Assembly: GCA_038040445.1 (NCBI GenBank)
Contig: JBBPIG010000002.1
Span: 257,847 to 321,846 of the forward strand
Length of the DNA stretch: 64,000 bases
Source of the DNA: Candidatus Onstottus frigus
GTDB taxonomy: Bacteria > Acidobacteriota > Blastocatellia > UBA7656
Direction: 5' to 3'
Shown here: piece after piece, positions 1 through 30,068 of the stretch
Layout of the letters: every line of letters begins with the position of its first letter
Numbering within the stretch: the stretch's first letter is position 1
Made by a program: the position numbers and the translations under genes
Notes under the pieces: model-generated
Databases searched by the model: none
What the model saw: the letters and a program-made list of their open reading frames with translations, nothing else
Told to the model about the DNA's origin: nothing

Positions 1-156
1 GGCAACAACAAGGTCCGTTCACGAGACATCATTCTCGCTCCCGGCAAGGACAAAGACGTGAAGGGCTCAGTCGTCGCAATTCCCGACACTGGCGGAGGCG
101 GTAAGCTCAAGTCGGGCGAGATCGCTCCGTTCGAGATTCGGCTCAAGCACAAGTGA
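1..156 (+). CDS. 3' end of an upstream gene (partial; product unknown)
   Basis: Frame open from window edge (…GGGKLKSGEIAPFEIRLKHK*), TGA at 154-156 overlaps GTG start of next gene (GTGA coupling). Confidence 0.3.
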   Translation, partial: GNNKVRSRDIILAPGKDKDVKGSVVAIPDTGGGGKLKSGEIAPFEIRLKHK

Positions 157-1322
157 TCAGAATTTTTCTTCCCAGTAGAATCAGGCTGGCGGCAGCTCTC
201 CTCGCTGTGGCGGCCGTCTCCGCTTGCATGTTCATTGTCCCGGCGGCCAGGGGACAATCTGCAAACAAGGAAGCCGTCCTATCGCCCGAGGCTCGCGCCC
301 TCGTCCGCCAGGCCATCGCTTCGACGGCGCTCGTCTCGGTTCGCAACTCGAGCGATTCTTCCAATTTGGGTCCGCGCGTACGAGGATCAGCGGTAGTCGT
401 GCGCGCCGACGGAGTATTGGTCACCAATTACCATGTCATCTTAAACACCCGGACCAGCCGCTCATACGACGAGATCTTCGTTAGTCTTTCCGGCGACGGC
501 GACGCGCTTTCATCCTCCGCTCGATATCGAGTCAAGCCTCTGCTGATAAACAAGGAATACGATCTGGCTTTGTTGCGCGTGGAATCGGACGCCGCCGGTA
601 ATCCAGTTCCAAAGTCGTTCACCTTTCCCAGCATCGAGATGGCGGACTCGCGCAAAATCAGCCTTTTGGAAGACCTGTTCATCATCGGCTTTCCCGAGAG
701 AGGCGGTTCGACCGTCACAATCAATCGAGGTGTCGTCGAGGGCAAAGATCTATTGGCGAACTGGATCAAGACCAATGCCCGCGTGATCCACGGCAACAGC
801 GGAGGAGCGGCGGTTAACAGCGAAGGCAAGCTGGTCGGCATCCCGACAAAGGTACTCGCCGATGAACAGGCGGTCGACAGAGACGGCGATGGCTTTCCCG
901 ACGACTATCGCCGCTTTGGCGCGGTAGGTTTTCTGCGACCCTCTCACCTTGTTGCCGCGATGGTTGCCCAACTAGACGACAAAAACGCAGTGAGCCAGCC
1001 GGCTCCCGTGGCGCCGAAAATGATCGAGTCATCGAAGCTCATCAGCGTTCGTGGACTCGTCAGGTCGGCTGCGGGCGGCAAGCCAATCGCCGGCGCGCTG
1101 GTTGGGCTTCTCCCGCTTGGAGAGATCAGCGTAACTGAAACGAGTCTGCTGACCTGGGCCAGCACCAACTCCGAAGGCGAGTTTAGACTCAACAGACCAG
1201 TTCCGCCGGGTCGATATACGCTCAAGGCTAAGGCGCTCGCCAGGCAGGCTTACACGCTCGATATCGAAATTGTTCCCAACTCGTCTCTGCTGATCATCGA
1301 GATGCGTGCATCCGATCAGTAA
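153..1322 (+). CDS. Trypsin-like (S1/HtrA-type) serine peptidase with C-terminal carboxypeptidase-regulatory-like beta-sandwich domain
   Basis: Signal-peptide-like N-terminus; catalytic triad context VTNYHV / DLALLRV / GNSGGAAVNSEGKLVGIP; C-terminal ISVRGLV…GRYTLKA CarboxypepD_reg-like segment. Confidence 0.8.
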   Translation: MIRIFLPSRIRLAAALLAVAAVSACMFIVPAARGQSANKEAVLSPEARALVRQAIASTALVSVRNSSDSSNLGPRVRGSAVVVRADGVLVTNYHVILNTRTSRSYDEIFVSLSGDGDALSSSARYRVKPLLINKEYDLALLRVESDAAGNPVPKSFTFPSIEMADSRKISLLEDLFIIGFPERGGSTVTINRGVVEGKDLLANWIKTNARVIHGNSGGAAVNSEGKLVGIPTKVLADEQAVDRDGDGFPDDYRRFGAVGFLRPSHLVAAMVAQLDDKNAVSQPAPVAPKMIESSKLISVRGLVRSAAGGKPIAGALVGLLPLGEISVTETSLLTWASTNSEGEFRLNRPVPPGRYTLKAKALARQAYTLDIEIVPNSSLLIIEMRASDQ

Positions 1323-1729
1323 ATGCCTTCCCTTATTGCAGCCGGCGTGACCGCAAAATCGAAGGCGCTCGAATCCTGACAAGGCGGGCAAGGGCGACGG
1401 CTGCGGAGTTCGAGTTCTCCGGAGCGGTGACCTGAGCGAGGGTGATGCCGGTGTTGGAACGATCGCACAAAGAAATCACGAATCAAGCACTACAAGCTTG
1501 ATTGCAACTTTGTTTATGGTTAGAATGAACTCGCTCGTGGACGGGCAAAGCATCTGGAGCGTCCGCGGAGCGGCAGCAGCACTCAGCCGGTTGTTCTGAT
1601 CGGCGCTCTTTCTGAATCGTCAAGAAACCTGCGGTGGCGACAGCGGATGCCGCCTGACGTTTGGTGTTCGAGCCGGGCTTAATAGGTCAGCCTCCTTCGA
1701 GGCTAGCCGTGAAACCGGGGGCAATCGTC

Positions 1730-2794
1730 ATGAAAAAGAATCTCGCGTGCGCCTTCTTGACCGCGCTCGTCGTTCTAGCGCTGTCCCAAATCCTTGCTCT
1801 ATCGGCCGGACAGGATAATAAAGGCTCGCCCCCGGCCCCAAAAGTCGAACCCGCAAAGGCCAAGCCTTCCGAGACACCCGCCCCGGTCAAGACAAGCGCC
1901 GACGACAACGCGCTCGCCGCAAAACCCGACAATAACAAGGTACAGAAACAAGCTGACGGGAAGATCATCCTGGACACCGAAGTCGTCAACGTGATCATAA
2001 GCGTCACCGATCCTTATGGCAGATTCGTCACCGGACTGGGCAAAGACCACTTTGAAGTCTTCGACGACAAGGTGAAGCAGCAGATAGCGCATTTCACCGA
2101 TGACGACTCCCCGGTTTCCCTTGGGATCGTCTACGATGTATCCGGCTCCATGAAGGAGCGCGTCAGCCGATCCATTCGCGCGCTGCGCCGCTTCATCGAG
2201 ACTTCACACAATGACGACGATTTCTTCCTCATAGGTTTCAATGATCGCGCCAAGCTCGTTCAAGACTTCACCACATCGGGAGACAGCATTCTCGGCAAGC
2301 TGATGTTCGTCAATCCACGCGGCTCGACTGCGCTTTACGATGCGGCCTACCTTGCAGTCGAGAAGGTCCAGCAGGGCCGACACTCAAAGAAGGCGCTCCT
2401 GATAGTCTCCGACGGTCAGGACAACAACAGCCGCTACACATACAAGGAACTTCGCAACAGGGTCAAAGAAGCGGACGTGCAAATCTACGCGATTGGTATA
2501 ACGGATCCGGTCAATGATTCGCTCGCGGGGTTCGGCCGTGGGATTCTTGAAGAAATGACACGGATGACCGGCGGCCGCGCATTCTTCCCCAACGCTTACA
2601 ATGAGCCCGAACTTGTCGAGATATGCACCCGCATCGCATTGGAGCTTCGCCATCAGTATTCCGTCGGCTTCTATCCGACTGACATTGCCAGCGAAGTCAA
2701 ATGGCATAAGGTTCAGGTAAAGGTGAATCCGCCGCGGGGCCTTGGCCGGCTGTCGCTCACCTACCGAGACGGATATCCATCGTTCAAGAAGTAA
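1730..2794 (+). CDS. VWA (von Willebrand factor type A) domain protein, secreted; paralog 1
   Basis: Signal peptide MKKNLACAFLTALVVLAL; MIDAS motif DVSGSM; conserved C-terminal FFP…YSVGFYP…YRDGY shared with paralogs at 2925 and 5743. ORF track starts at 1661 but the hydrophobic N-terminus begins at the internal ATG 1730. Confidence 0.8.
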   Translation: MKKNLACAFLTALVVLALSQILALSAGQDNKGSPPAPKVEPAKAKPSETPAPVKTSADDNALAAKPDNNKVQKQADGKIILDTEVVNVIISVTDPYGRFVTGLGKDHFEVFDDKVKQQIAHFTDDDSPVSLGIVYDVSGSMKERVSRSIRALRRFIETSHNDDDFFLIGFNDRAKLVQDFTTSGDSILGKLMFVNPRGSTALYDAAYLAVEKVQQGRHSKKALLIVSDGQDNNSRYTYKELRNRVKEADVQIYAIGITDPVNDSLAGFGRGILEEMTRMTGGRAFFPNAYNEPELVEICTRIALELRHQYSVGFYPTDIASEVKWHKVQVKVNPPRGLGRLSLTYRDGYPSFKK

Positions 2795-2924
2795 CAACTG
2801 CTTTAGACCGCAATCGCAAACTGCCCTCCCGTTCATGCTTTCGGCAACGGTTGAGGCGCATCCATGCATCCCACGCCTCGGAGTCCTGTTTTCAAATATT
2901 GATACCCCGGAGTAGAATCCTGTT

Positions 2925-3986
2925 ATGAAGTTCGAATCGGGTAGATTGGCTTTCGTCGCCGGCGTGGTTATCACTCTCAGTTTCCTTGTCGCAGGCTTTC
3001 CTTCACCGTCACTAGCCGGCGCCGGTCAGCAGCGACCCGACAAGCCCAAACTCCAGAAACCGCAGCAGCCGAAAGACGACGAGTCGCAACAGAAGCCGCA
3101 ACAGAAGGATGACGCACCCATACGCATTGGCACCGACCTGGTATTGCTCGACGTGACGGTTGTCGATCCGTCGAACAAGCCGGTCATGGACCTGAAGCGC
3201 GAGGACTTCGCGGTGAGTGAAGACAAGCTCGCCCAAAAGATTGAGTTCTTCAGCCGCGACCAGGTGCCGGTATCGCTGGTTTTCACGATCGACACGTCCG
3301 GCTCGATGCGTCCTAAACTGGACACCGTCGTTAAGGCTTCGACCAACCTGGTGAAAGAGAGTCGCTCCGGCGACGAGATCGCTGTCATAGAGTTCAAGGA
3401 CCAGCCGGAGCTTTTAGAAGAGTTCAGCGGCGACATCAATGATGTGATCGATACGCTCAACGGACTAGTCGCTTCGCGTCAGACCGCGATGCTCGATGCT
3501 CTGTACCTTGGTGCCGACTACGCAAACAAGGAAGGCAAGAACCGCCGGAAGGCTGTACTGGTGGTGACCGACGGGCTCGACAATGATAGCTACTACAAGT
3601 TCGGTGAAGTGGTAAGTCATCTTCGGGAGATCGATGTTCAGATTTACCTGATTGGATTCATCAGCGATCTAGATCGGGACTCGGGTCTGTTTAAGAAGAG
3701 CGCGAAAGAAAAGGCTGAGACGCTTCTAAACAAGCTTGCAGAAGAAACGGGCGGCAAGGCCTTCTTTCCCAGAGAACTATCAGAGGTTCACGCAATTGCA
3801 CAGCAGATCTCGACCGATCTGCGTACGCAGTATTCAATCGGCTACTATCCGACCAATTCCAAAAAAGACGGTTCGTTCCGCGCTGTGAAAGTACAAGTGA
3901 ACGGCGGCACACGGCGATTGGTCGCGCGCACTCGCAACGGATACACCGCGCCCCGCGAGGGCGAAGCGCACAACAACAGCAAGTAG
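2925..3986 (+). CDS. VWA domain protein, secreted; paralog 2
   Basis: Signal peptide; MIDAS DTSGSM; same C-terminal AFFP…YSIGYYP…NGYTAP block as neighbours. Confidence 0.8.
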   Translation: MKFESGRLAFVAGVVITLSFLVAGFPSPSLAGAGQQRPDKPKLQKPQQPKDDESQQKPQQKDDAPIRIGTDLVLLDVTVVDPSNKPVMDLKREDFAVSEDKLAQKIEFFSRDQVPVSLVFTIDTSGSMRPKLDTVVKASTNLVKESRSGDEIAVIEFKDQPELLEEFSGDINDVIDTLNGLVASRQTAMLDALYLGADYANKEGKNRRKAVLVVTDGLDNDSYYKFGEVVSHLREIDVQIYLIGFISDLDRDSGLFKKSAKEKAETLLNKLAEETGGKAFFPRELSEVHAIAQQISTDLRTQYSIGYYPTNSKKDGSFRAVKVQVNGGTRRLVARTRNGYTAPREGEAHNNSK

Positions 3987-4380
3987 GCCTGACAGACCCG
4001 TTTCAGGATCCCTGACATCGTCACCGGCAATCTGACCGCGCTCATCAAGCGGGCTCCCATTACCAAGCTAGAATTGTGTCCGTTACCTGATGGAGCGTCC
4101 GCTTACCGCTCATGCTGGTATGACTTTTCGTTGCCGAGATTGCGACGGACGCAGTGTTGCTTTTCTTTGTTCGCTAGAGTCAAGGTGTTGTCTCCCGCCT
4201 GTTAACTACTAAGCTTCAGCAATTCAACCTATCGAGTGTTCGCACAACAATGCCCTAACAGAAAAGAAGACCTTCATTGAGAAGGGGCAGGAACTAATTC
4301 ATATTTGATGGTCTTGCGTTTGATTGATAATATTGCGCGCTGCTTTCTTTGAATTCATTTCCGGAGCGATGAGGTAATCT

Positions 4381-5349
4381 GTGATTAAGACGCTTGTGCT
4401 CAATCGTGAAACCAAAACTTTCACCAAAATTGATGATCCTGATGAAATCAATCAGCTCTGCGCAATACCATCCAATATTATTTGGGTAGATGTGGCTGAT
4501 CCGACAAGCGCCGATTTTGAAGAATTAGCTAAAGAATTTGGCTTTCATCCCCTGTCGATCGAGGACTGCCGCAACGAACATCAGCGCCCTAAAGTTGAAG
4601 AGTTCGAGGGCTACTACTTTATCGTTCTTTATGAAGCTGAATTGGTCCTGGAAAGACATCTGGAACTTCGCGAGTTGAATATTTTTCTAGGCAAGAACTA
4701 TTTAGTCACTGTTCATAGCCAGCCTATACGCACGTTGGAAACTGGTGAACGGCTCTGGCGGGGGTGGACGGATTTAGCTGAAAGAGGCACGGGTTTATTG
4801 GCCTATCTGCTCATAGACGCAATTGTGGATGATTATATGCCTCTGCTTGATGCGATTTCTGATCGAATGGATGAATTGGAGGATAAGATCTTCGTGGATT
4901 TTCAGGCAGAAGCATTGGAAGAGATTTTCCGCATAAAGAAAGATTTGCTCTTCCTGCGCCGGTCGGTCACGCCTTTGCGAGATGTGTTCAATACGCTGCT
5001 GCGTCGCGAACAGCAAATCTTTTCACGCGAGACTTACATCTACTTTCAGGATGTCTTCGATCATTTGATTCGCGTCGCTGACACCATTGATACTCTACGC
5101 GATTTGCTGGGAGCGACAATGGATGCCTACTTGTCGGTTTCAGGAAACCGAATGAATATGGTCATGAAAAGATTGACCTCGATTTCAGCTATTCTTATGT
5201 CGATCACGCTCATTGCCGGAATCTATGGGATGAACTTCGACTTTATGCCCGAACTGAAATGGAGATACGGCTATGTCGGCGCACTAGGCTCAATTCTAGC
5301 GGTTGGTGTTTCCCTTTATCTCTATTTCAGAAGGATCAAATGGCTATGA
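4381..5349 (+). CDS. corA: CorA-family Mg2+/Co2+ transporter
   Basis: C-terminal two TM helices with the diagnostic [11 protein letters not shown] (GMN) motif; GTG start; gene is ~42% GC versus ~60% flanks. Confidence 0.9.
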
Positions 5350-21561: not shown

Positions 21562-23277
21562 CTAGGTTCGCGCGAATATGTCTCGCTCTTCGCCAAGCTC
21601 GCGCGCGGCCGGTGTGATTATGGTCTTGCCGTTGATGTAGATCTTCTCGTGCGCCGCCATTGCGAGCTTCACATCCTCCTCACAGACGAAATCGTAGACT
21701 CGTCCGTTGCTCGCTCGATTCGTTGACGCCGGCGGCGCAGCTTGCGATGGCGCCTGTTGGTGCGGTCTCTCAAACGAAGTGCCGGCAGGGCTAGGAAGCT
21801 GCGACAGCGGTTGCGCGGGTGGCTGAACACGGCGTTCGGCCAGGAACCGATCTACAAGCGCGGCAATTTCGGCGCGATCGACCGTCGCCGCCGGCCGCGC
21901 TACTGGCCGCGCCGGCGCGGCTGCGTGATTGATCGGCTTCGTCTCGAACGCGATGCGTTTTATGTCTAGGAGATGGCGCGGCGAGATGTTGTCCGAGGTA
22001 ACGTTCCCTCCCCACGATCCGCACCCAAGCGTCATCGACGGCTCGAGGTCGGTTGTGAAGCCAATCGCTCCGTGCGTCGAAGGGCTGTTGACCACAACTC
22101 GCGACGCGGGCATGCGAATACCGTATTCGCGAGCGGCATCGCGGCTCTCGGTGTGGATCGAAGCGGTGTGACCCATGCCTCCGTATCTGAGTATCTGAGC
22201 GCATCGTTCGCAGCCCTGTTCGAAACTATCAACCACGTAGTAAGCAAGTATCGGCGAGAGCTTCTCCATCGACAGCGGATGATCGCGCCCCACGCCGGAA
22301 AGCTCGCAGATCAGCACGCGAGTTCCGTCGGGTATCGTGAGCCCGGCCATCTCAGCAATAACCTTCGGGCTCTTGCCGACAATCTTCGGATTGAGTGTGT
22401 TAGTGGCCGTCGCGACGACCCGCGTCAATGCGTCCTGTTGTTCCTTGCCCAGGAAGTAAGCGCCCTCGGCAAGCAGCCGCTCTCGCACGTGCGAGTCGAC
22501 TGCCCGCTCGACGACGATCGCTTGCTCTGACGAGCAGATGGTCCCGTTGTCGAAACACTTGCCGGTAAGAATATCGCGCACAGCTTTCGAGACATTGGCT
22601 GAGCGCTCGATCATCGCCGGGACGTTGCCCGGCCCGACGCCGAAGGCAGGCTTGCCGGAAGAGTACGCCGCGCGCACCAGGCCTATTCCGCCCGTTGCAA
22701 GTATCACCGCGGTTCGCTTGTGCTTCATCAGCTCCTGTGTGCCTTCGATCGTCGCTACGGTCATGCATCCGATCGCGCCTGCGGGCAAGCCGGCTGCTTC
22801 CCCCGCTTCGCGCATCACCCGCGCTGTCTCGTTGATGCAGTTGGTAGCCGACGGATGCGGGCTCAACACCACTGCGTCGCGAGCCTTGATGGCGATCAGG
22901 ATTTTGAAGATGGCAGTGGAGGTCGGATTGGTCGAAGGAATTATCGCGGCTACCACGCCCCGCGGTGAAGCGACTTCGATTATGCTGTCGGTCTGGCGAA
23001 CGACGCCGACGGTACGCATCGGCTTGATAAAGTTATAAACCTGTTCGGCTGAGAATCGATTCTTGCTGGCCTTATCTGCCGCTGAACCGTAGCCAGTTTC
23101 CAGGTGGGCCATCTCGCCGAGGCGGTAGGCGTCTTCCAGTGCTACGCGGGCCATCGCGCCCACGATCTCGTCAACTTTCTCTTGTGCGAACGCGCCTAGT
23201 GTCTTTTGTGCTTCGTGCGCTCGTTCGACAAGCTCTCGCGCCTGCTCGATGGATTTCAGGTCCTTGTCGCTGCTCAT
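21562..23277 (-). CDS. CoA-acylating aldehyde dehydrogenase (PduP/EutE family) with ~120-aa C-terminal extension
   Basis: Core matches PduP/EutE throughout ([10 protein letters not shown]…; catalytic Cys in [11 protein letters not shown]); C-terminus has amphipathic helix [18 protein letters not shown], Pro/Gln-rich linker, and conserved ~40-aa tail [38 protein letters not shown]. Confidence 0.85.
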
Positions 23278-23296
23278 GACAACTGCTCAATCAAAG

Positions 23297-23350
23297 AGTC
23301 CGTAGTCCGTCCGTAAGTGTGCAGCCGGCAAATTGCTACGGACTACGGAT
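23297..23350. repeat. REP-like palindromic element, second copy (AGTCCGTAGTCCGTCCGTAAG … CTACGGACTACGGAT)
   Basis: Same arms as element at 11238-11320; lies between BMC-H and aldDH genes. Confidence 0.55.
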
Positions 23351-23353
23351 TTC

Positions 23354-23749
23354 CTATTTAGCTCGCTCTTTCGAAGGGGTAGGAGAAGACAGCGAGCGCT
23401 TGCCGTCCTCTTGCGCGCCAGCCGTCAACTGGCCGCGGGCTTCTCCGCCGAGTTGCGCACCAGGGTTGACGATCCCACTCGATTCCAACACTTGCTCGAG
23501 CTCCTTATGGGGACGCGGTATTACATGAACGCTGACCAACTCGCCGACGCGACGGGCCGCAGCCGCTCCCGCGTCGGTCGCCGCCTTTACAGCGCCGACG
23601 TCGCCGCGAACCAACACGGTCACGTAGCCGGCCCCGATGTACTCGCGGCCAACAAGTACGACGTTGGCGGCTTTGACCATTGCGTCAGCGGCCTCCACTG
23701 CTCCCACGAATCCTTTGGTCTCGATCATTCCTAGTGCTTCGGTATTCAT
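23354..23749 (-). CDS. Bacterial microcompartment shell protein BMC-H (PduA/CcmK type) with ~45-aa C-terminal tail
   Basis: [30 protein letters not shown]…[39 protein letters not shown]: near-canonical Pfam00936 sequence. Confidence 0.9.
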
Positions 23750-24117: not shown

Positions 24118-25056
24118 ATGCCGACACTGGGCGAAGAACTGAGACACAAGCGGGAACAGCGCGGTATCACGCTTGCTGAAATAGCGGAAGCGACCCGGAT
24201 CGGCACGCGCTTTCTGAAAGCCATCGAGACGGACAATTTCTCCATCCTTCCAGGCGGAATCTTCACCCGCTCCTTCATCCGAGCATATGCCAAACACGTC
24301 GGCATGAACGAAGACGAAGCGATAGGATTGTATCTCGAACAGGTCGCGGGCCCGACCATTGAGCAACAACAACCAGCAGATCAACCCAACATTCAGACCC
24401 CGCCGGCGGAGAAGATAACCAAGCTGGCGCCCACTTCATCCGGTATCGCCAGACCGGCAGCGCCCGTTGCCGCGAGTTCACGCCGCTTCGAGCCGGTCAC
24501 CTTTCGTCAGTCGCCTGCCCGCACAAGCTGGCCGACGATCGTGATCGGCGCGGGAATTGTGATTTTCATCGTGATCATTGTGATCGCTCTGGTTAAGCAG
24601 CTCAATCAAGGGGGAGGTGAAACCGAATCGCAAGCCACTTCTTCTGAGCAAAAGAATGCGCCTTCGAAGCAAGCTCCTCAAACGGGGAAACAGCCGGCGG
24701 CTCAACCCGGCTCGCGCTCGTCCGGTGAGCCTGCTTCCCCGCCGCCCGCGGAAACGTCTTCGCCTCCGGCATCGGCGCCGGCTGGCGAGCCGCTCCTCGT
24801 CAAGATCGAAGCAGCTACCGGCGATAGTTGGGTCAAATACCAGGTCGATGACGCCAAGCCGACTACTCTGGTATTGAAACGGGGCCAGTCCCAAGACCTT
24901 CCTCCGGCCCAAAGCCAGGTCACGCTGAACTACGGCGACCGGACTACGCTCAAGCTAAAGATCAACAACCGCGATGCCAACTTCCCTGCCGACACCCCAA
25001 AATTCGCTTCGCAGGTGGTCATCTCCAGGAACAATTTCCGAACGTTCTTTCAATAG
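24118..25056 (+). CDS. RodZ-like membrane protein (HTH_XRE N-domain, single TM, DUF4115-like C-domain)
   Basis: LRHKREQRGITLAEIAEATRIGTRFLKAIE HTH; TM WPTIVIGAGIVIFIVIIVIALV; Pro/Ala-rich linker; C-terminal beta domain. Confidence 0.65.
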   Translation: MPTLGEELRHKREQRGITLAEIAEATRIGTRFLKAIETDNFSILPGGIFTRSFIRAYAKHVGMNEDEAIGLYLEQVAGPTIEQQQPADQPNIQTPPAEKITKLAPTSSGIARPAAPVAASSRRFEPVTFRQSPARTSWPTIVIGAGIVIFIVIIVIALVKQLNQGGGETESQATSSEQKNAPSKQAPQTGKQPAAQPGSRSSGEPASPPPAETSSPPASAPAGEPLLVKIEAATGDSWVKYQVDDAKPTTLVLKRGQSQDLPPAQSQVTLNYGDRTTLKLKINNRDANFPADTPKFASQVVISRNNFRTFFQ

Positions 25057-25142: not shown

Positions 25143-26600
25143 TCAGTGTCGGAGTTTTTCTACCCAGCTCTTAACTAACTGAGGGATCGAATCAGCGGCG
25201 GCAGAATCAAAAGCGCGACCGCCCTCAGCGAAATGTGGCGCGTAAATACCATATATGTTTGACCAATCTCTCAGGCTATCAGCCGATCCACCCTCCACCA
25301 AGAGAAGGACAGGTTTGCTTTGCCCGTGGAAGAATCCAGCTTCATATGGAAGATTCTTACCCAGCACGTCGGACCCACTTAGACCTACGACAAGAACGAT
25401 AGCAGCGTCGGCGATCCACATTTTCGCTGAGACTTCATTAAAAATCAGGACCGGGGCCTCTGGCTCTCGTTCGGGGGACGCCTCCAGCGCCATGCATCCG
25501 TTAGCAACCAGGTTGTCGCGAACGCTGCGCGCAATTTGCTCGGCACGAGAGTCGCTAGTAAACCGACGGGAGACAAAGATTGGGATCTGGCCGTCCGGTA
25601 CGCGTTTCTGTTCATGCCGCACCTGGTAGAGAATGTTCTTCGGAACATGGGCAACGACTGCATCGGGAGTACGAGGGTAAACCGAATCAACGCCAGCTAT
25701 TCCATCGTTCATGTTCACTTTTATCAAATACTCTGGCGGAAGGTCGAGAAGGTCAGTTTCTACTCCTTCAAAAATACCATCACTGTTGCTCCCACCCTTC
25801 GGCTCACAGACGGCAACTAGGACAGCGTTACCCGCTGATGCTCCGCCGCGCCTTAAGAGCGTGGATAGTATGTTGAGATTACGGTCAACCAGAATTTGAG
25901 TTAGCACCTTCAAAGCTCCAGGCCGGTCGGAATGCTCGATAGATACGGTTTTCGCTCCCTTATAAGGAAATACGAAGCGGAGAAGGCGCTCATCCGTATC
26001 GGCTGAAACGACAGCTTTGGTCAAATCAATATTGTTGCTTAGACTCCCATAACGTCGGGCAATCTCTCTCTTCCAGCGGGTGCGCATCAGCCACCCGTGT
26101 TCAACCTCGCCTTTATCGGTCCACCTGACATGTCGCTGTGGAAAGTGCTCGATACGAACCCTTTCAAAACCCCGATCTGTGAGTGTCCGCCTTAAGGATT
26201 GCGATCGGACCGGGAAAGCTCTTCTGCCCTGCATAGGCTCACATATCAAGGTAATATCATGGAGCGCTCCTCCTTCCATTGTTATTGACTCGGCAAGCGC
26301 GATATTGAGATTGCTAACTACATCGACGGCACCAGCGACGACGCCGGGCTGATCCCGGCGACGACACTCAACGCGTATCATCCGATGACGCTGGAAAGGG
26401 TCGAGCACTGACACGATGAGATCACCAACCGGGCGTTCCCTTCCTTCAATTAACGATATGTAACATCGCGTATAGGATTGGAAGCCCAGAGGCGCGCGAT
26501 GCCACCAAGGCAGAGGTAAGTCAGTTCGATCCCGTGGCAGGCTTATTAGATCACCCAGAACTTGCATCTTGAACCTGTAAGTTAAGGGGCCAGCCAACAA
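25143..26600 (-). CDS. Tandem ACT domains fused to a C-terminal TIR-like (DUF1863/flavodoxin-fold) domain
   Basis: ACT1 RMIRVECRRRDQPGVVAGAVDVVSNLNIAL…; ACT2 TVSIEHSDRPGALKVLTQILVDRNLNILS…; C-terminus IPIFVSRRFTSDS… AKMWIADAAIVLVVGLSGSDV…YEAGFFHGQSKPVLLLV resembles a TIR-like betaA / alphaC-W…E…KPV pattern; ~50% GC; TTG start at 26600 or ATG at 26567. Confidence 0.5.
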   Translation of the reverse strand: MLAGPLTYRFKMQVLGDLISLPRDRTDLPLPWWHRAPLGFQSYTRCYISLIEGRERPVGDLIVSVLDPFQRHRMIRVECRRRDQPGVVAGAVDVVSNLNIALAESITMEGGALHDITLICEPMQGRRAFPVRSQSLRRTLTDRGFERVRIEHFPQRHVRWTDKGEVEHGWLMRTRWKREIARRYGSLSNNIDLTKAVVSADTDERLLRFVFPYKGAKTVSIEHSDRPGALKVLTQILVDRNLNILSTLLRRGGASAGNAVLVAVCEPKGGSNSDGIFEGVETDLLDLPPEYLIKVNMNDGIAGVDSVYPRTPDAVVAHVPKNILYQVRHEQKRVPDGQIPIFVSRRFTSDSRAEQIARSVRDNLVANGCMALEASPEREPEAPVLIFNEVSAKMWIADAAIVLVVGLSGSDVLGKNLPYEAGFFHGQSKPVLLLVEGGSADSLRDWSNIYGIYAPHFAEGGRAFDSAAADSIPQLVKSWVEKLRH

Positions 26601-27009
26601 ATTGTTGCTATTAGATCTGACTTCTGAACTATGGTGGCTCCTTCGAAGGCACTCGATACTACTATTTTGTCAAAAGGATGTCCACTACATAAGCACATTG
26701 AACTGAGGCTCCCGTTATACCAAGAGCAAGCATAGACTTCAGCCTATCCGAGATACTCCAGCCATCGACGTATTAAACTGACGTATTCAACCAATGTTAT
26801 TACTTAATCGGATTGCGAAGCCGCGTTAGCAGCGCCTACCAATCATGATCGGGGTTTGCGACATGACAACTACGTCACAAGTGGCAAGGAATGCGGTAGC
26901 GAGAGAGCCTGGAGGCTTAACACCGAAGGACGAAAACTTCATCAGTTAGCCCTCTCCGCAAGTTGTGGTCGTTGCGAGTCGCAGGAGAATGATTGCACCG
27001 TTTTTGATT

Positions 27010-29103: not shown

Positions 29104-29126
29104 CTTTGATGACAAGGAGCACTAGA

Positions 29127-30068
29127 ATGGACTCAAGCAAAACTACGCCAGGACACACTACCAACGGCGAGGAGTGCTTTGTGGTTATGCCGGTACGTGA
29201 TCCTGACGGCTACGCACCGGGACATTTTAAGCATGTGTTCGATGATATATTCGCACCCGCTTGTGACAAGGCTGGGTTTCGACCGATTCGCGCAGACCAG
29301 GTTCGAGCGACAAATCTCATACACCTGGACATTTTGCAAAAGCTAATCGAATCACCAATGGCGTTATGTGACTTAAGCAGTCGGAATCCAAACGTACTCT
29401 TCGAGTTGGGGCTCCGACAGGCTTTTGACCAACCAGTAGTCCTGGTTCGGGAAATTGGCACAGATGACATTTTTGATATCGGTCCGCTTCGATATACCGA
29501 GTATCACAAAGAGCGTATTTACCATGAGGTACTTGAAGATCGGGAGAAGATCGCAATTGCGATAGGCGCCACGCGCGAAGCATTCGAGAGTGGGCAAGGA
29601 GTCAACTCAATCATCAGATTACTGTCGCTCAGTCAACCCGCGAGCTTGGCCGATTTGCAAGAAGCTGACAGGGATCCCCTTCTCCAAATAATACGCGCTG
29701 AAATGAGTGAATTGAGATCTGAGTTTAAGGCTGCCTTGAGAATATCTGATGCTTCGCAGCTTGCGTGGGTCGCACGCTCGCTTCGAATCAACGAGGCAGT
29801 TGAGGAGATTGCTCGTCGCCAATTGGATAAACTTCAACAGGACTTATCAATTTCAGCGTCACTCGATTCTGAACCCGGGCCTTGGGCAGAGAGGAGAAGG
29901 AAGAAATGGGAATTGATTAAAGACGGGATAGGACTTTTAACGACCATGAGGCGAGCCGTAGGAGAAGAGTCAGACCTACTTTCGTCAATCAGCGCTTTAG
30001 CGAAGCGTTACAACGATGCCGAAACAGAGTACCTTGATGAAGAGATTGAAAACATAAACCCGAGTTGA
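29127..30068 (+). CDS. Nucleoside-2-deoxyribosyltransferase-like / TIR-like (flavodoxin-fold, SLOG-type) N-domain fused to a ~190-aa coiled-coil region
   Basis: AAGGAG 8 nt upstream of ATG 29127; ECFVVMPV…ALCDLSSRNPNVLFELGLRQAFDQPVVLV ('MP' + 'NPNVxFELG…PV' motif); rest is heptad-rich helical; ~49% GC. Confidence 0.5.
   Translation: MDSSKTTPGHTTNGEECFVVMPVRDPDGYAPGHFKHVFDDIFAPACDKAGFRPIRADQVRATNLIHLDILQKLIESPMALCDLSSRNPNVLFELGLRQAFDQPVVLVREIGTDDIFDIGPLRYTEYHKERIYHEVLEDREKIAIAIGATREAFESGQGVNSIIRLLSLSQPASLADLQEADRDPLLQIIRAEMSELRSEFKAALRISDASQLAWVARSLRINEAVEEIARRQLDKLQQDLSISASLDSEPGPWAERRRKKWELIKDGIGLLTTMRRAVGEESDLLSSISALAKRYNDAETEYLDEEIENINPS

Follow-up and report, generated by a model that had tools for sequence, protein, structure and literature searches.

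A gene on the reverse strand of a 64,000-nucleotide stretch of Candidatus Onstottus frigus DNA (contig JBBPIG010000002.1; the whole stretch that was analysed is called the window below) encodes a protein in which a small N-terminal domain and a tandem pair of ACT domains precede a C-terminal domain of the nucleoside 2-deoxyribosyltransferase (NDT)/TIR-like superfamily. We give an even chance to the reading that this protein is a stand-alone, ligand-gated N-glycosidase, catalytic via its C-terminal domain, with NAD+ or a nucleotide or nucleoside as its substrate. Our analysis shows the architecture, the fold class and the conservation of one glutamate (Glu420), and also that the gene has no partner and is patchily distributed; the catalysis, the substrate, the ligand, the direction of regulation and the biological role are inferred.

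The gene, its product and the sensor region

An intact open reading frame (ORF) was located at 25143..26600 on the minus strand, encoding 485 amino acids (aa) when counted from a TTG. This agrees with a preliminary description of the window, and the peptides quoted there were found in the translation, IPIFVSRRFTSDS at residues 339-351 and AKMWIADAAIVLVVGLSGSDV...YEAGFFHGQSKPVLLLV at residues 392-436. Because more than 80 full-length homologs (31-65% identity, about 480 aa) begin with MQVLGDL, which corresponds to residue 12 of the ORF, the true start is most likely the ATG at 26567, giving a predicted product of 474 aa. With this start, the coding sequence of the ACT-ACT-NDT/TIR-like protein, as judged from 83 aligned homologs, would span 25143..26567 on the minus strand (474 aa plus the stop codon), and the mechanically defined ORF reaches to the TTG at 26600. 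Residue numbers in this text are counted from the TTG.

A database search returned 89 homologs with E-values from 1e-210 to 5e-57, nearly all of them 470-500 aa long and aligned over about 98% of their length; the family alignment used throughout comprises 83 sequences, all close homologs. The family has about 100 cluster representatives, all from metagenomes and metagenome-assembled genomes (MAGs), and no curated family spanning the whole protein was found in Pfam, PADLOC or the other family searches. The ORF is a member of a real, conserved and uncharacterised bacterial gene family, far beyond a chance pattern in a single sequence. The identical database entry, AABO57_03380 from an Acidobacteriota MAG, is only 314 aa long: the NCBI annotation keeps the last 314 codons and leaves out the N-terminal domain and the first ACT domain.

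The AlphaFold2 model built with the family alignment had a mean predicted local distance difference test score (pLDDT) of 91.2 and a predicted template modelling score (pTM) of 0.79. In order, it contains a small N-terminal domain (residues 12-72), a beta-alpha-beta-beta-alpha-beta unit (ACT1, residues 75-152), a hairpin followed by a helix and two strands (residues 158-210), a second beta-alpha-beta-beta-alpha-beta unit (ACT2, residues 217-298), a long helix (residues 321-333) and an alternating beta/alpha domain with five strands (residues 339-484). When the full model was compared with the PDB by Foldseek, the leading matches were tandem-ACT proteins, with mycobacterial SerB2 at the top (E = 1e-8), accompanied by the GcvR-like structures 1u8s and 2nyi, PurU and regulatory subunits of aspartokinase (probability 1.00); these alignments had overall root-mean-square deviations of 9-20 Å, i.e. 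the orientation of the domains differs. The tandem ACT domains that had been proposed in the preliminary description were borne out by Pfam, profile-profile comparison, the AlphaFold2 model and Foldseek. Its division of the protein into two ACT domains and a C-terminal domain was correct as far as it went, but it had overlooked the conserved N-terminal domain and the segment between the two ACT domains.

ACT2 (residues 214-300; 25701..25961, minus strand; located by Pfam ACT and the model) matched Pfam ACT (PF01842) in the window protein with E = 1.9e-6 and 28.0 bits against a cut-off of 27, and the same Pfam family matched 83 of the 83 homologs. ACT1 (residues 73-153; 26142..26384, minus strand; located by the model and by hhalign against ACT2) was not detected directly in the Pfam ACT scan of the window protein; hhalign of ACT1 against ACT2, however, gave a probability of 96% and E = 1.7e-9, with the D-x-P-G loops and a shared C-E-P motif aligned. 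In the model, ACT1 consists of strands at residues 75-82, 99-108, 113-121 and 146-152 and helices at residues 87-94 and 133-142, and DSSP gave the correct order of elements, beta-alpha-beta-beta-alpha-beta, both at residues 75-152 and at residues 217-298. The loops between the first strand and the first helix, D83-x-P-G86 in ACT1 and D225-x-P227-G228 in ACT2, are nearly invariant, distant relatives included, and N99 and E104 of ACT1 are invariant in the 83-sequence alignment. The distant relatives referred to here and below are 26 full-length proteins of 22-35% identity with the same architecture.

Conservation within the ACT pair points to a binding site. The ACT2 profile aligned without gaps, although weakly (E = 0.55), with residues 344-372 of Escherichia coli 3-phosphoglycerate dehydrogenase (PGDH), and this weak alignment sets H223, D225 and N243 of ACT2 on H344, N346 and N364 of PGDH, the residues holding the allosteric L-serine. 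The probable ligand-site residues of ACT2, H223, D225 and N243, do not vary in the close family, and 20 to 24 of the 26 distant relatives retain them; their ACT1 counterparts D83 and N99 are also kept, and the conserved E104 of ACT1 lies opposite the conserved R251 position of ACT2. Such conservation supports the view that the ACT pair is a functional small-molecule site, for which an amino acid is a plausible ligand. Because ACT2 keeps His, Asp and Asn at the serine positions of PGDH, the ligand would probably be an amino acid or a similar metabolite. A metal site of the NikR type, built from His and Cys (H114-x5-C120 and C265), was considered and rejected, as distant relatives have Leu, Ile or Val in place of C120.

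Two further parts of the N-terminal region are strongly conserved. The N-terminal domain (residues 12-72; 26385..26567, minus strand), which was delimited by conservation and carries the motif LPLPWWHRAPLG, is the best conserved region of the protein, with 25% of its columns conserved at 90% or more versus 5% in the C-terminal domain, and its P-W-x-x-R-x-x-L-G motif survives in relatives of 22-30% identity. The inter-ACT segment (residues 154-213; 25962..26141, minus strand; from the model and the alignment) carries the motif VVSADTxxRxLRFVFP and is modelled as a beta-hairpin, a helix and two strands; G169, D192, S199, D201, R205, R208 and P212 are invariant in the 83-sequence alignment, and R205, R208 and P212 are kept in distant relatives as well. 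Both motifs are invariant in the close family and recognisable in distant relatives. As judged from the alignments, these two parts constitute new conserved sequence modules, neither of which could be placed in a known family, and they may serve as a coupling element between sensor and effector. A third, degenerate ACT domain was rejected for the N-terminal as well as the middle segment, with an hhalign probability below 0.5%. Searches with 21 to 29 N-terminal sequences returned no Pfam or PDB sequence match. An AbrB/SpoVT/MazE-type domain at the N-terminus found no support either: the spacing of the motif, P-x3-R-x2-L-G-[ILF], equals that of the AbrB/SpoVT loop-helix, and hhalign picked the same register, at a probability of 0.07%.

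Between ACT2 and the C-terminal domain lies a linker with one long helix (residues 301-336, helix at 321-333 in the model; 25593..25700, minus strand). It is poorly conserved, with no column reaching 90%, and is absent in the divergent short members of the family described below.

The C-terminal domain and its conserved glutamate

The C-terminal domain (residues 337-485; 25146..25592, minus strand) is flavodoxin-like and was assigned to the NDT/TIR-like superfamily from the model and from Foldseek. A separate model of residues 316-485 had a pLDDT of 84, and its best matches in the PDB were NDT and DNPH1 structures (E = 6e-4 to 3e-3), namely the NDTs of Trypanosoma brucei (2a0k, E = 6e-4), Chroococcidiopsis (8pqs) and Desulfotalea (7o62) and human DNPH1 (8rqd and 8qhr). 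With TM-scores of 0.5-0.57 for the query and, at the highest, 0.72 for the target, the similarity to NDT and DNPH1 is moderate. TIR domains ranked just behind in the PDB, with flax L6 at E = 2e-3 and a Bacillus cereus TIR (8fz9) at E = 6e-3, and in a library of viral structures NDTs again led the list (E = 1.3e-4), and TIR-domain proteins took ranks 6, 8 and 16.

Sequence searches placed the domain in the same surroundings. The domain of the window protein itself had no Pfam match, including PF05014 (NDT; E <= 1) and PF10137 (CAP12-PCTIR_TIR). Among the 83 family members, PF05014 was matched by 22 at E <= 0.1 (best 1.1e-5, all below the threshold of 28.8 bits) and PF10137 by 13 at E <= 0.1 (best 9.4e-4, all below the threshold of 24.7 bits); TIR_2 (PF13676) was matched by one (E = 6.5e-4), PF01582 (TIR) by none, and PF08937 (ThsB/DUF1863) by none at E <= 0.1. 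A profile of the domain searched against 1.84 billion representative proteins recovered 570 proteins at E <= 1e-3. We scanned 20 of these more distant relatives of the domain, most of which lie outside the ACT family, against Pfam, and most of them matched PF10137, PF05014 or both. Five of the 20 (P0192, P0193, P0199, P0204 and P0217), which are the domain's closest relatives beyond the ACT family, were above the PF10137 threshold, with 27.0 to 38.4 bits, and PF05014 reached at most 26.5 bits, which is below its 28.8. On these scans, the affinity of the window protein's domain to PF10137 is transitive only.

Domains of this type occur in varied settings. The outside relatives are fused to signalling modules, i.e. 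receiver, ACT, pentapeptide repeats and low-molecular-weight phosphatase; among the proteins with the same type of C-terminal domain (P0176, P0193, P0217, P0121 and P0132) we observed one of 611 aa in which the domain is joined to pentapeptide repeats and ACT, one of 327 aa combining a receiver with PF10137, and one of 318 aa combining PF10137 with a low-molecular-weight phosphatase. Within the ACT family, versions of 645-656 aa carry an insertion of about 150 aa ahead of the C-terminal domain.

On these models and profiles, the C-terminal domain is placed within the TIR/NDT N-glycosidase fold group, with NDT nearest by structure and PF10137 nearest by transitive sequence links. The preliminary description had called the domain TIR-like and had compared it with DUF1863. 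The term TIR-like is right in the broad sense only: the Foldseek matches agree with the TIR/NDT fold group, but the domain is not DUF1863-like, as the counts for PF08937 and TIR_2 indicate. Nor is the domain an unrelated fold lacking an active-site glutamate, since it belongs to the TIR/NDT fold group and has a conserved Glu in an E-x-G...GKP motif.

This glutamate, the predicted catalytic residue Glu420 (codon at 25341..25343, minus strand, from the translation), lies in the motif NLPYE420AGFFHGQSKPVLLLV. The family profile matched Lactobacillus NDT weakly (E 0.3-1.5; 1f8x and 9gn4), and the match was located at the catalytic motif, where the alignment of "nlahEfGFlqGQgKpvllLv" with "LGMELGYALSQGKYVLLVI" sets Glu420 on the NDT nucleophile, Glu98 of the L. 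leichmannii enzyme. Close homologs keep Glu420 in 75 of 83 cases, G422 in 81 and K429 in 82. Of the 26 distant relatives, 25 retain Glu420, all 26 have F342 and G422, 22 have W395 and 20 have R346, and K429 is kept alongside Glu420. Because it is kept at 22-35% identity, this conservation argues for Glu420 as a selected residue, with a presumed catalytic or ligand-contact role. A divergent subclade of eight short close members (among them P0075, P0078, P0083, P0085 and P0087, of 443-463 aa) has lost Glu420, S344, R346 and W395; it lacks the linker helix and retains the N-terminal and ACT parts, and its effector domain may have been inactivated or repurposed.

Genomic context, proposed function and alternatives

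An all-against-all comparison of the ORFs in 21 independent loci of the family revealed nothing that recurred, apart from two genes, for serine hydroxymethyltransferase (SHMT) and a DinG-type helicase, that the window shares with a related acidobacterial contig (L003), and a conserved operon partner was therefore rejected. In L003, as in the window, the SHMT gene is followed by the target gene, with the DinG-type helicase gene nearby; the G+C content at third codon positions (GC3) in this contig is 0.77 for SHMT, which is native, and 0.56 for the target. We therefore regard the SHMT linkage as a case of local synteny and do not read it as a system.

When one genome per species was scanned, the family turned up in 13 species, all represented by MAGs, a count that is a lower bound since it came from one strict peptide pattern. 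The hosts are MAGs of Acidobacteriota, Bacteroidota, Nitrosospira, Alphaproteobacteria, Planctomycetota and Gemmatimonadota. The GC3 of the target gene falls below that of its neighbours in 13 of 17 loci, with z-scores as low as -6 to -8. This patchy phyletic and compositional pattern suggests that the target is a stand-alone, horizontally mobile accessory gene. The neighbourhoods include genes for DUF4062-STAND, ThsB_TIR and CHAT proteins and insertion sequence (IS) elements in Nitrosospira (L020), and IS elements, Mrr, MmeI_TRD and DUF3800 in L025; toxin-antitoxin pairs lie near the homologs in L005 and L024, and AAA_13, DUF4365 and Uma2 genes in L022, L010 and L021, respectively. In L023, the target lies downstream of a class-V aminotransferase gene. 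For the family, a possible defence role is suggested. In the Nitrosospira locus, a dense defence island lies beside the homolog at positions 1-4400 (CAADGK010000114.1), with a DUF4062-nSTAND-AAA_16-FGE-sulfatase protein, ThsB_TIR and CHAT/TPR-S, after which come IS110 and IS3 transposases and an SNF2 helicase.

In the window, the target gene lies downstream of the SHMT gene on the same strand, separated from it by 440 nt. A consensus scan of this gap found a weak sigma-70-like promoter match, TGGACA-17-TAGTAT (26656..26684, minus strand), about 90 nt upstream of the ATG; the scan gave three sites against 1.7 expected. A riboswitch or other known RNA was also looked for in this 440-nt gap, but Rfam matched nothing there at E <= 1. 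The target, the SHMT gene and a gene for a 320-aa protein together form a 5-kb block (25.1-30.1 kb) with a GC3 of 0.48-0.52 versus 0.65-0.80 in the flanks. The window SHMT has 463 aa with terminal extensions and shares only 48% identity with its L003 counterpart, whose composition is native; the window SHMT may be an acquired second copy.

The 320-aa protein is encoded at 29106-30068 on the plus strand, between the SHMT gene and a gene for a DinG-type helicase, and has an NDT/TIR-like N-terminal domain with the motif NPNVLFELGLRQAFDQPVVLV. It matched the PADLOC TIR effector model (E = 9.4e-6) and no Pfam family, and more than 1050 uncharacterised homologs, each about 300 aa long, make up its very large family. 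Identity over the first 60% of the protein is 60-75% across Acidobacteriota, Bacteroidota, Verrucomicrobiota and Pseudomonadota. Homology of this neighbour to the target's C-terminal domain was not accepted, being marginal only (hhalign 2.9%, E = 0.016, with the motif in the same register). On the other side of the target, a gene for a RodZ-like protein (HTH_25 plus RodZ_C, with a low-complexity middle rich in Pro, Ser and Ala) at 24118-25056 on the plus strand converges on it with a gap of 86 nt. Farther away, at 21562-23749 on the minus strand, a BMC-domain shell protein is encoded beside an aldehyde dehydrogenase of 571 aa with a long Pro/Ala-rich C-terminal tail, which looks like part of a bacterial microcompartment locus.

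In the ligand-gated N-glycosidase that we propose, the N-terminal two-thirds of the protein, comprising the novel domain, the ACT pair and the inter-ACT segment, would act as the small-molecule sensor, with the metabolite bound by the ACT pair. Ligands of ACT domains bind at domain interfaces, and the active sites of NDTs are built across subunits. Since ACT domains and NDT/TIR enzymes both act through dimer or oligomer interfaces, binding or loss of the ligand at the ACT pair would probably change the dimeric or oligomeric state, and this change of assembly would form or break a composite active site in the C-terminal domains. Glu420 would then attack, or activate, the ribosyl C1' of NAD+, a nucleotide or a nucleoside. 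TIR NADases need ordered assembly, and TIR-STING and PycTIR are turned on by ligand-induced oligomerisation (PMC9402430, PMC11224242). As the context of the proposed activity we favour a role in stress or against phages, where it would deplete the cellular pool of NAD+ or nucleotides.

In the immunity of bacteria, plants and animals, TIR- and NDT-like N-glycosidases serve as central effectors, normally triggered by dedicated nucleotide second messengers or protein sensors, and in metabolism the classic allosteric sensors of amino acids are ACT domains. The fullest form of the proposal, in which the tandem ACT pair reads the pool of an amino acid or other primary metabolite and exerts direct control over a TIR-like NAD+/nucleotide glycosidase as a one-protein immune or stress switch, seems to us doubtful. 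If it were true, the level of a primary metabolite would directly gate the destruction of NAD+ or nucleotides, joining the logic of metabolic feedback to that of cell suicide or growth arrest. The protein would then represent a new class of sensors for TIR-type effectors, in which an ordinary metabolite-binding domain replaces the dedicated second-messenger receptor. In addition, some 100 clusters of hypothetical proteins would gain a function, as would the two new conserved modules.

Several observations weigh against a ligand-gated N-glycosidase with a defence or stress role. The matches to NDT and TIR are all weak (Foldseek E of about 1e-3 to 1e-4 and TM of about 0.5; profile E of 0.3 to 1.5 against the PDB), the window protein itself is among those with no Pfam hit on the C-terminal domain, and Phe342 stands at the position of the NDT active-site Tyr7, in a stretch of the alignment that is not significant. 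Glu420 is lost in eight of the 83 members, and the N-terminal and ACT parts are better conserved than the proposed effector, so that the core function might lie there. As for the context, about half of the loci have purely metabolic neighbours, a tblastn search found no homolog on plasmids or phages, and PADLOC-DB v2 returned no defence family at E <= 1 for the target protein.

Some of these data would fit a housekeeping enzyme, an ACT-regulated N-ribohydrolase or deoxyribosyltransferase of the NDT/DNPH1 type that works in salvage or one-carbon-linked nucleotide metabolism under feedback by Ser, Gly or another amino acid and has no role in conflict. We regard this explanation as rather unlikely, although it accounts for the fact that NDT and DNPH1 rather than TIR are the best structural matches and that PF05014 is the most frequent Pfam match of the C-terminal domain (22 of 83). 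It would also fit the resemblance of the ACT region to SerB2, GcvR-like proteins and PurU, which belong to Ser, Gly and one-carbon metabolism, the mapping of ACT2 residues onto the serine site of PGDH in a weak alignment, and the positions of SHMT, directly upstream on the same strand in the window and L003, and of the class-V aminotransferase upstream in L023. However, adjacency to SHMT is limited to two of the 21 loci, both on related acidobacterial contigs that also share DinG; the PF05014 matches never reach 28.8 bits, and the equivalents of NDT Tyr7 and Asp92 appear not to be kept. Moreover, the gene is rare, patchy over six phyla and compositionally foreign in most of its hosts, which is unexpected for a core enzyme. 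If the protein were nevertheless a feedback-regulated nucleotide hydrolase, it would represent a new regulatory design for the NDT/DNPH1 family.

A narrower form of the N-glycosidase reading would make the gene a dedicated single-gene anti-phage system acting by abortive infection, in which the ACT pair monitors a metabolite perturbed by phage and the TIR-like domain depletes NAD+. The defence and mobile neighbourhoods of L020 and L025, and in part of L005, L010, L021, L022 and L024, are in keeping with such a system, as are the low GC3 relative to the host, the affinity to PF10137 and the second NDT/TIR-like gene with a PADLOC TIR effector match (E = 9e-6) in the low-GC3 5-kb block of the window. 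We nevertheless consider this specialised role unlikely, as the target protein has no PADLOC match, no copy was found on phages or plasmids and many loci are metabolic; furthermore, we found no paper tying ACT domains to phage sensing or describing them as sensors of phage-defence effectors.

Quite improbable is a non-catalytic, metabolite-responsive regulator whose C-terminal domain binds a nucleotide or oligomerises and whose output comes from the N-terminal domain, e.g. by binding DNA or protein: the N-terminal domain and the inter-ACT segment are indeed the most conserved parts, the divergent subclade has lost Glu420, S344, R346 and W395 and retained the N-terminal and ACT parts, and the N-terminal motif has the spacing of the AbrB/SpoVT loop-helix, but the AbrB link has no statistical support (hhalign 0.07%), the 21 to 29 N-terminal sequences gave no Pfam or PDB match, Glu420 persists in 25 of 26 relatives of 22-35% identity together with F342, G422 and K429, as would be expected of a selected active site, and the nearest outside relatives of the C-terminal domain are an NADase effector family.

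Comparison with known systems

The closest functional parallels to the proposed ligand-gated N-glycosidase are Cap12 (TIR-STING) and PycTIR of CBASS and Pycsar (PF10137), which likewise combine a small-molecule sensor and a TIR-like N-glycosidase with a catalytic Glu in one polypeptide; the ligand-driven assembly suggested above is modelled on these enzymes (PMC9402430, PMC11224242). The target differs from them in its sensor, which is a tandem ACT pair with a novel N-terminal domain instead of a STING or cyclic-nucleotide-binding domain, and in having no adjoining cyclase/CD-NTase or other conserved partner in the 21 loci. NDT and DNPH1/Rcl (PF05014) are the best structural matches, and the E-x-G...GK motif sets Glu420 on their covalent nucleophile, Glu98. 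However, these proteins of about 150 aa stand alone and lack sensor domains; the position of NDT Tyr7 appears to be Phe in the target, Asp92 appears to have no conserved equivalent, and three conserved residues of the target, S344 and R346 following strand 1 and W395, are not features of NDT.

Among TIR-related proteins, the DUF4062 NADases (Swarozyc/TEP1) resemble the target in their distant similarity to both TIR and NDT, in a conserved catalytic Glu and in variable fused sensors. DUF4062 is distant from both TIR and NDT, has a conserved Glu and was shown to be an NADase (bioRxiv 10.64898/2026.05.01.722283). The target family, in contrast, has no sequence match to DUF4062 (PF13271), which occurs only as a neighbour gene in the Nitrosospira locus. 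The ThsB/DUF1863 TIR domain (PF08937) shares the general pattern of an 'F-x-S' motif at strand 1 and an 'E...GKP' motif, but PF08937 matched none of the 83 members, and the target has no ThsA partner.

With respect to the sensor, SerB2 also has two ACT domains N-terminal to its catalytic domain, and the ACT domain of PGDH has H344, N346 and N364 at the positions of the H-x-D...N residues of ACT2. Unlike SerB2, PurU and aspartokinase, in which the catalytic domain is of the HAD, formyltransferase or kinase type, the target carries an NDT/TIR-like one, and it differs from the tandem-ACT enzymes also in its additional conserved N-terminal and inter-ACT modules. We found no paper describing a fusion of ACT domains with a TIR or NDT domain. 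Proteins that join a sensor to a TIR-like effector are already known; the new element in this family is the sensor, an ACT pair accompanied by two conserved modules.

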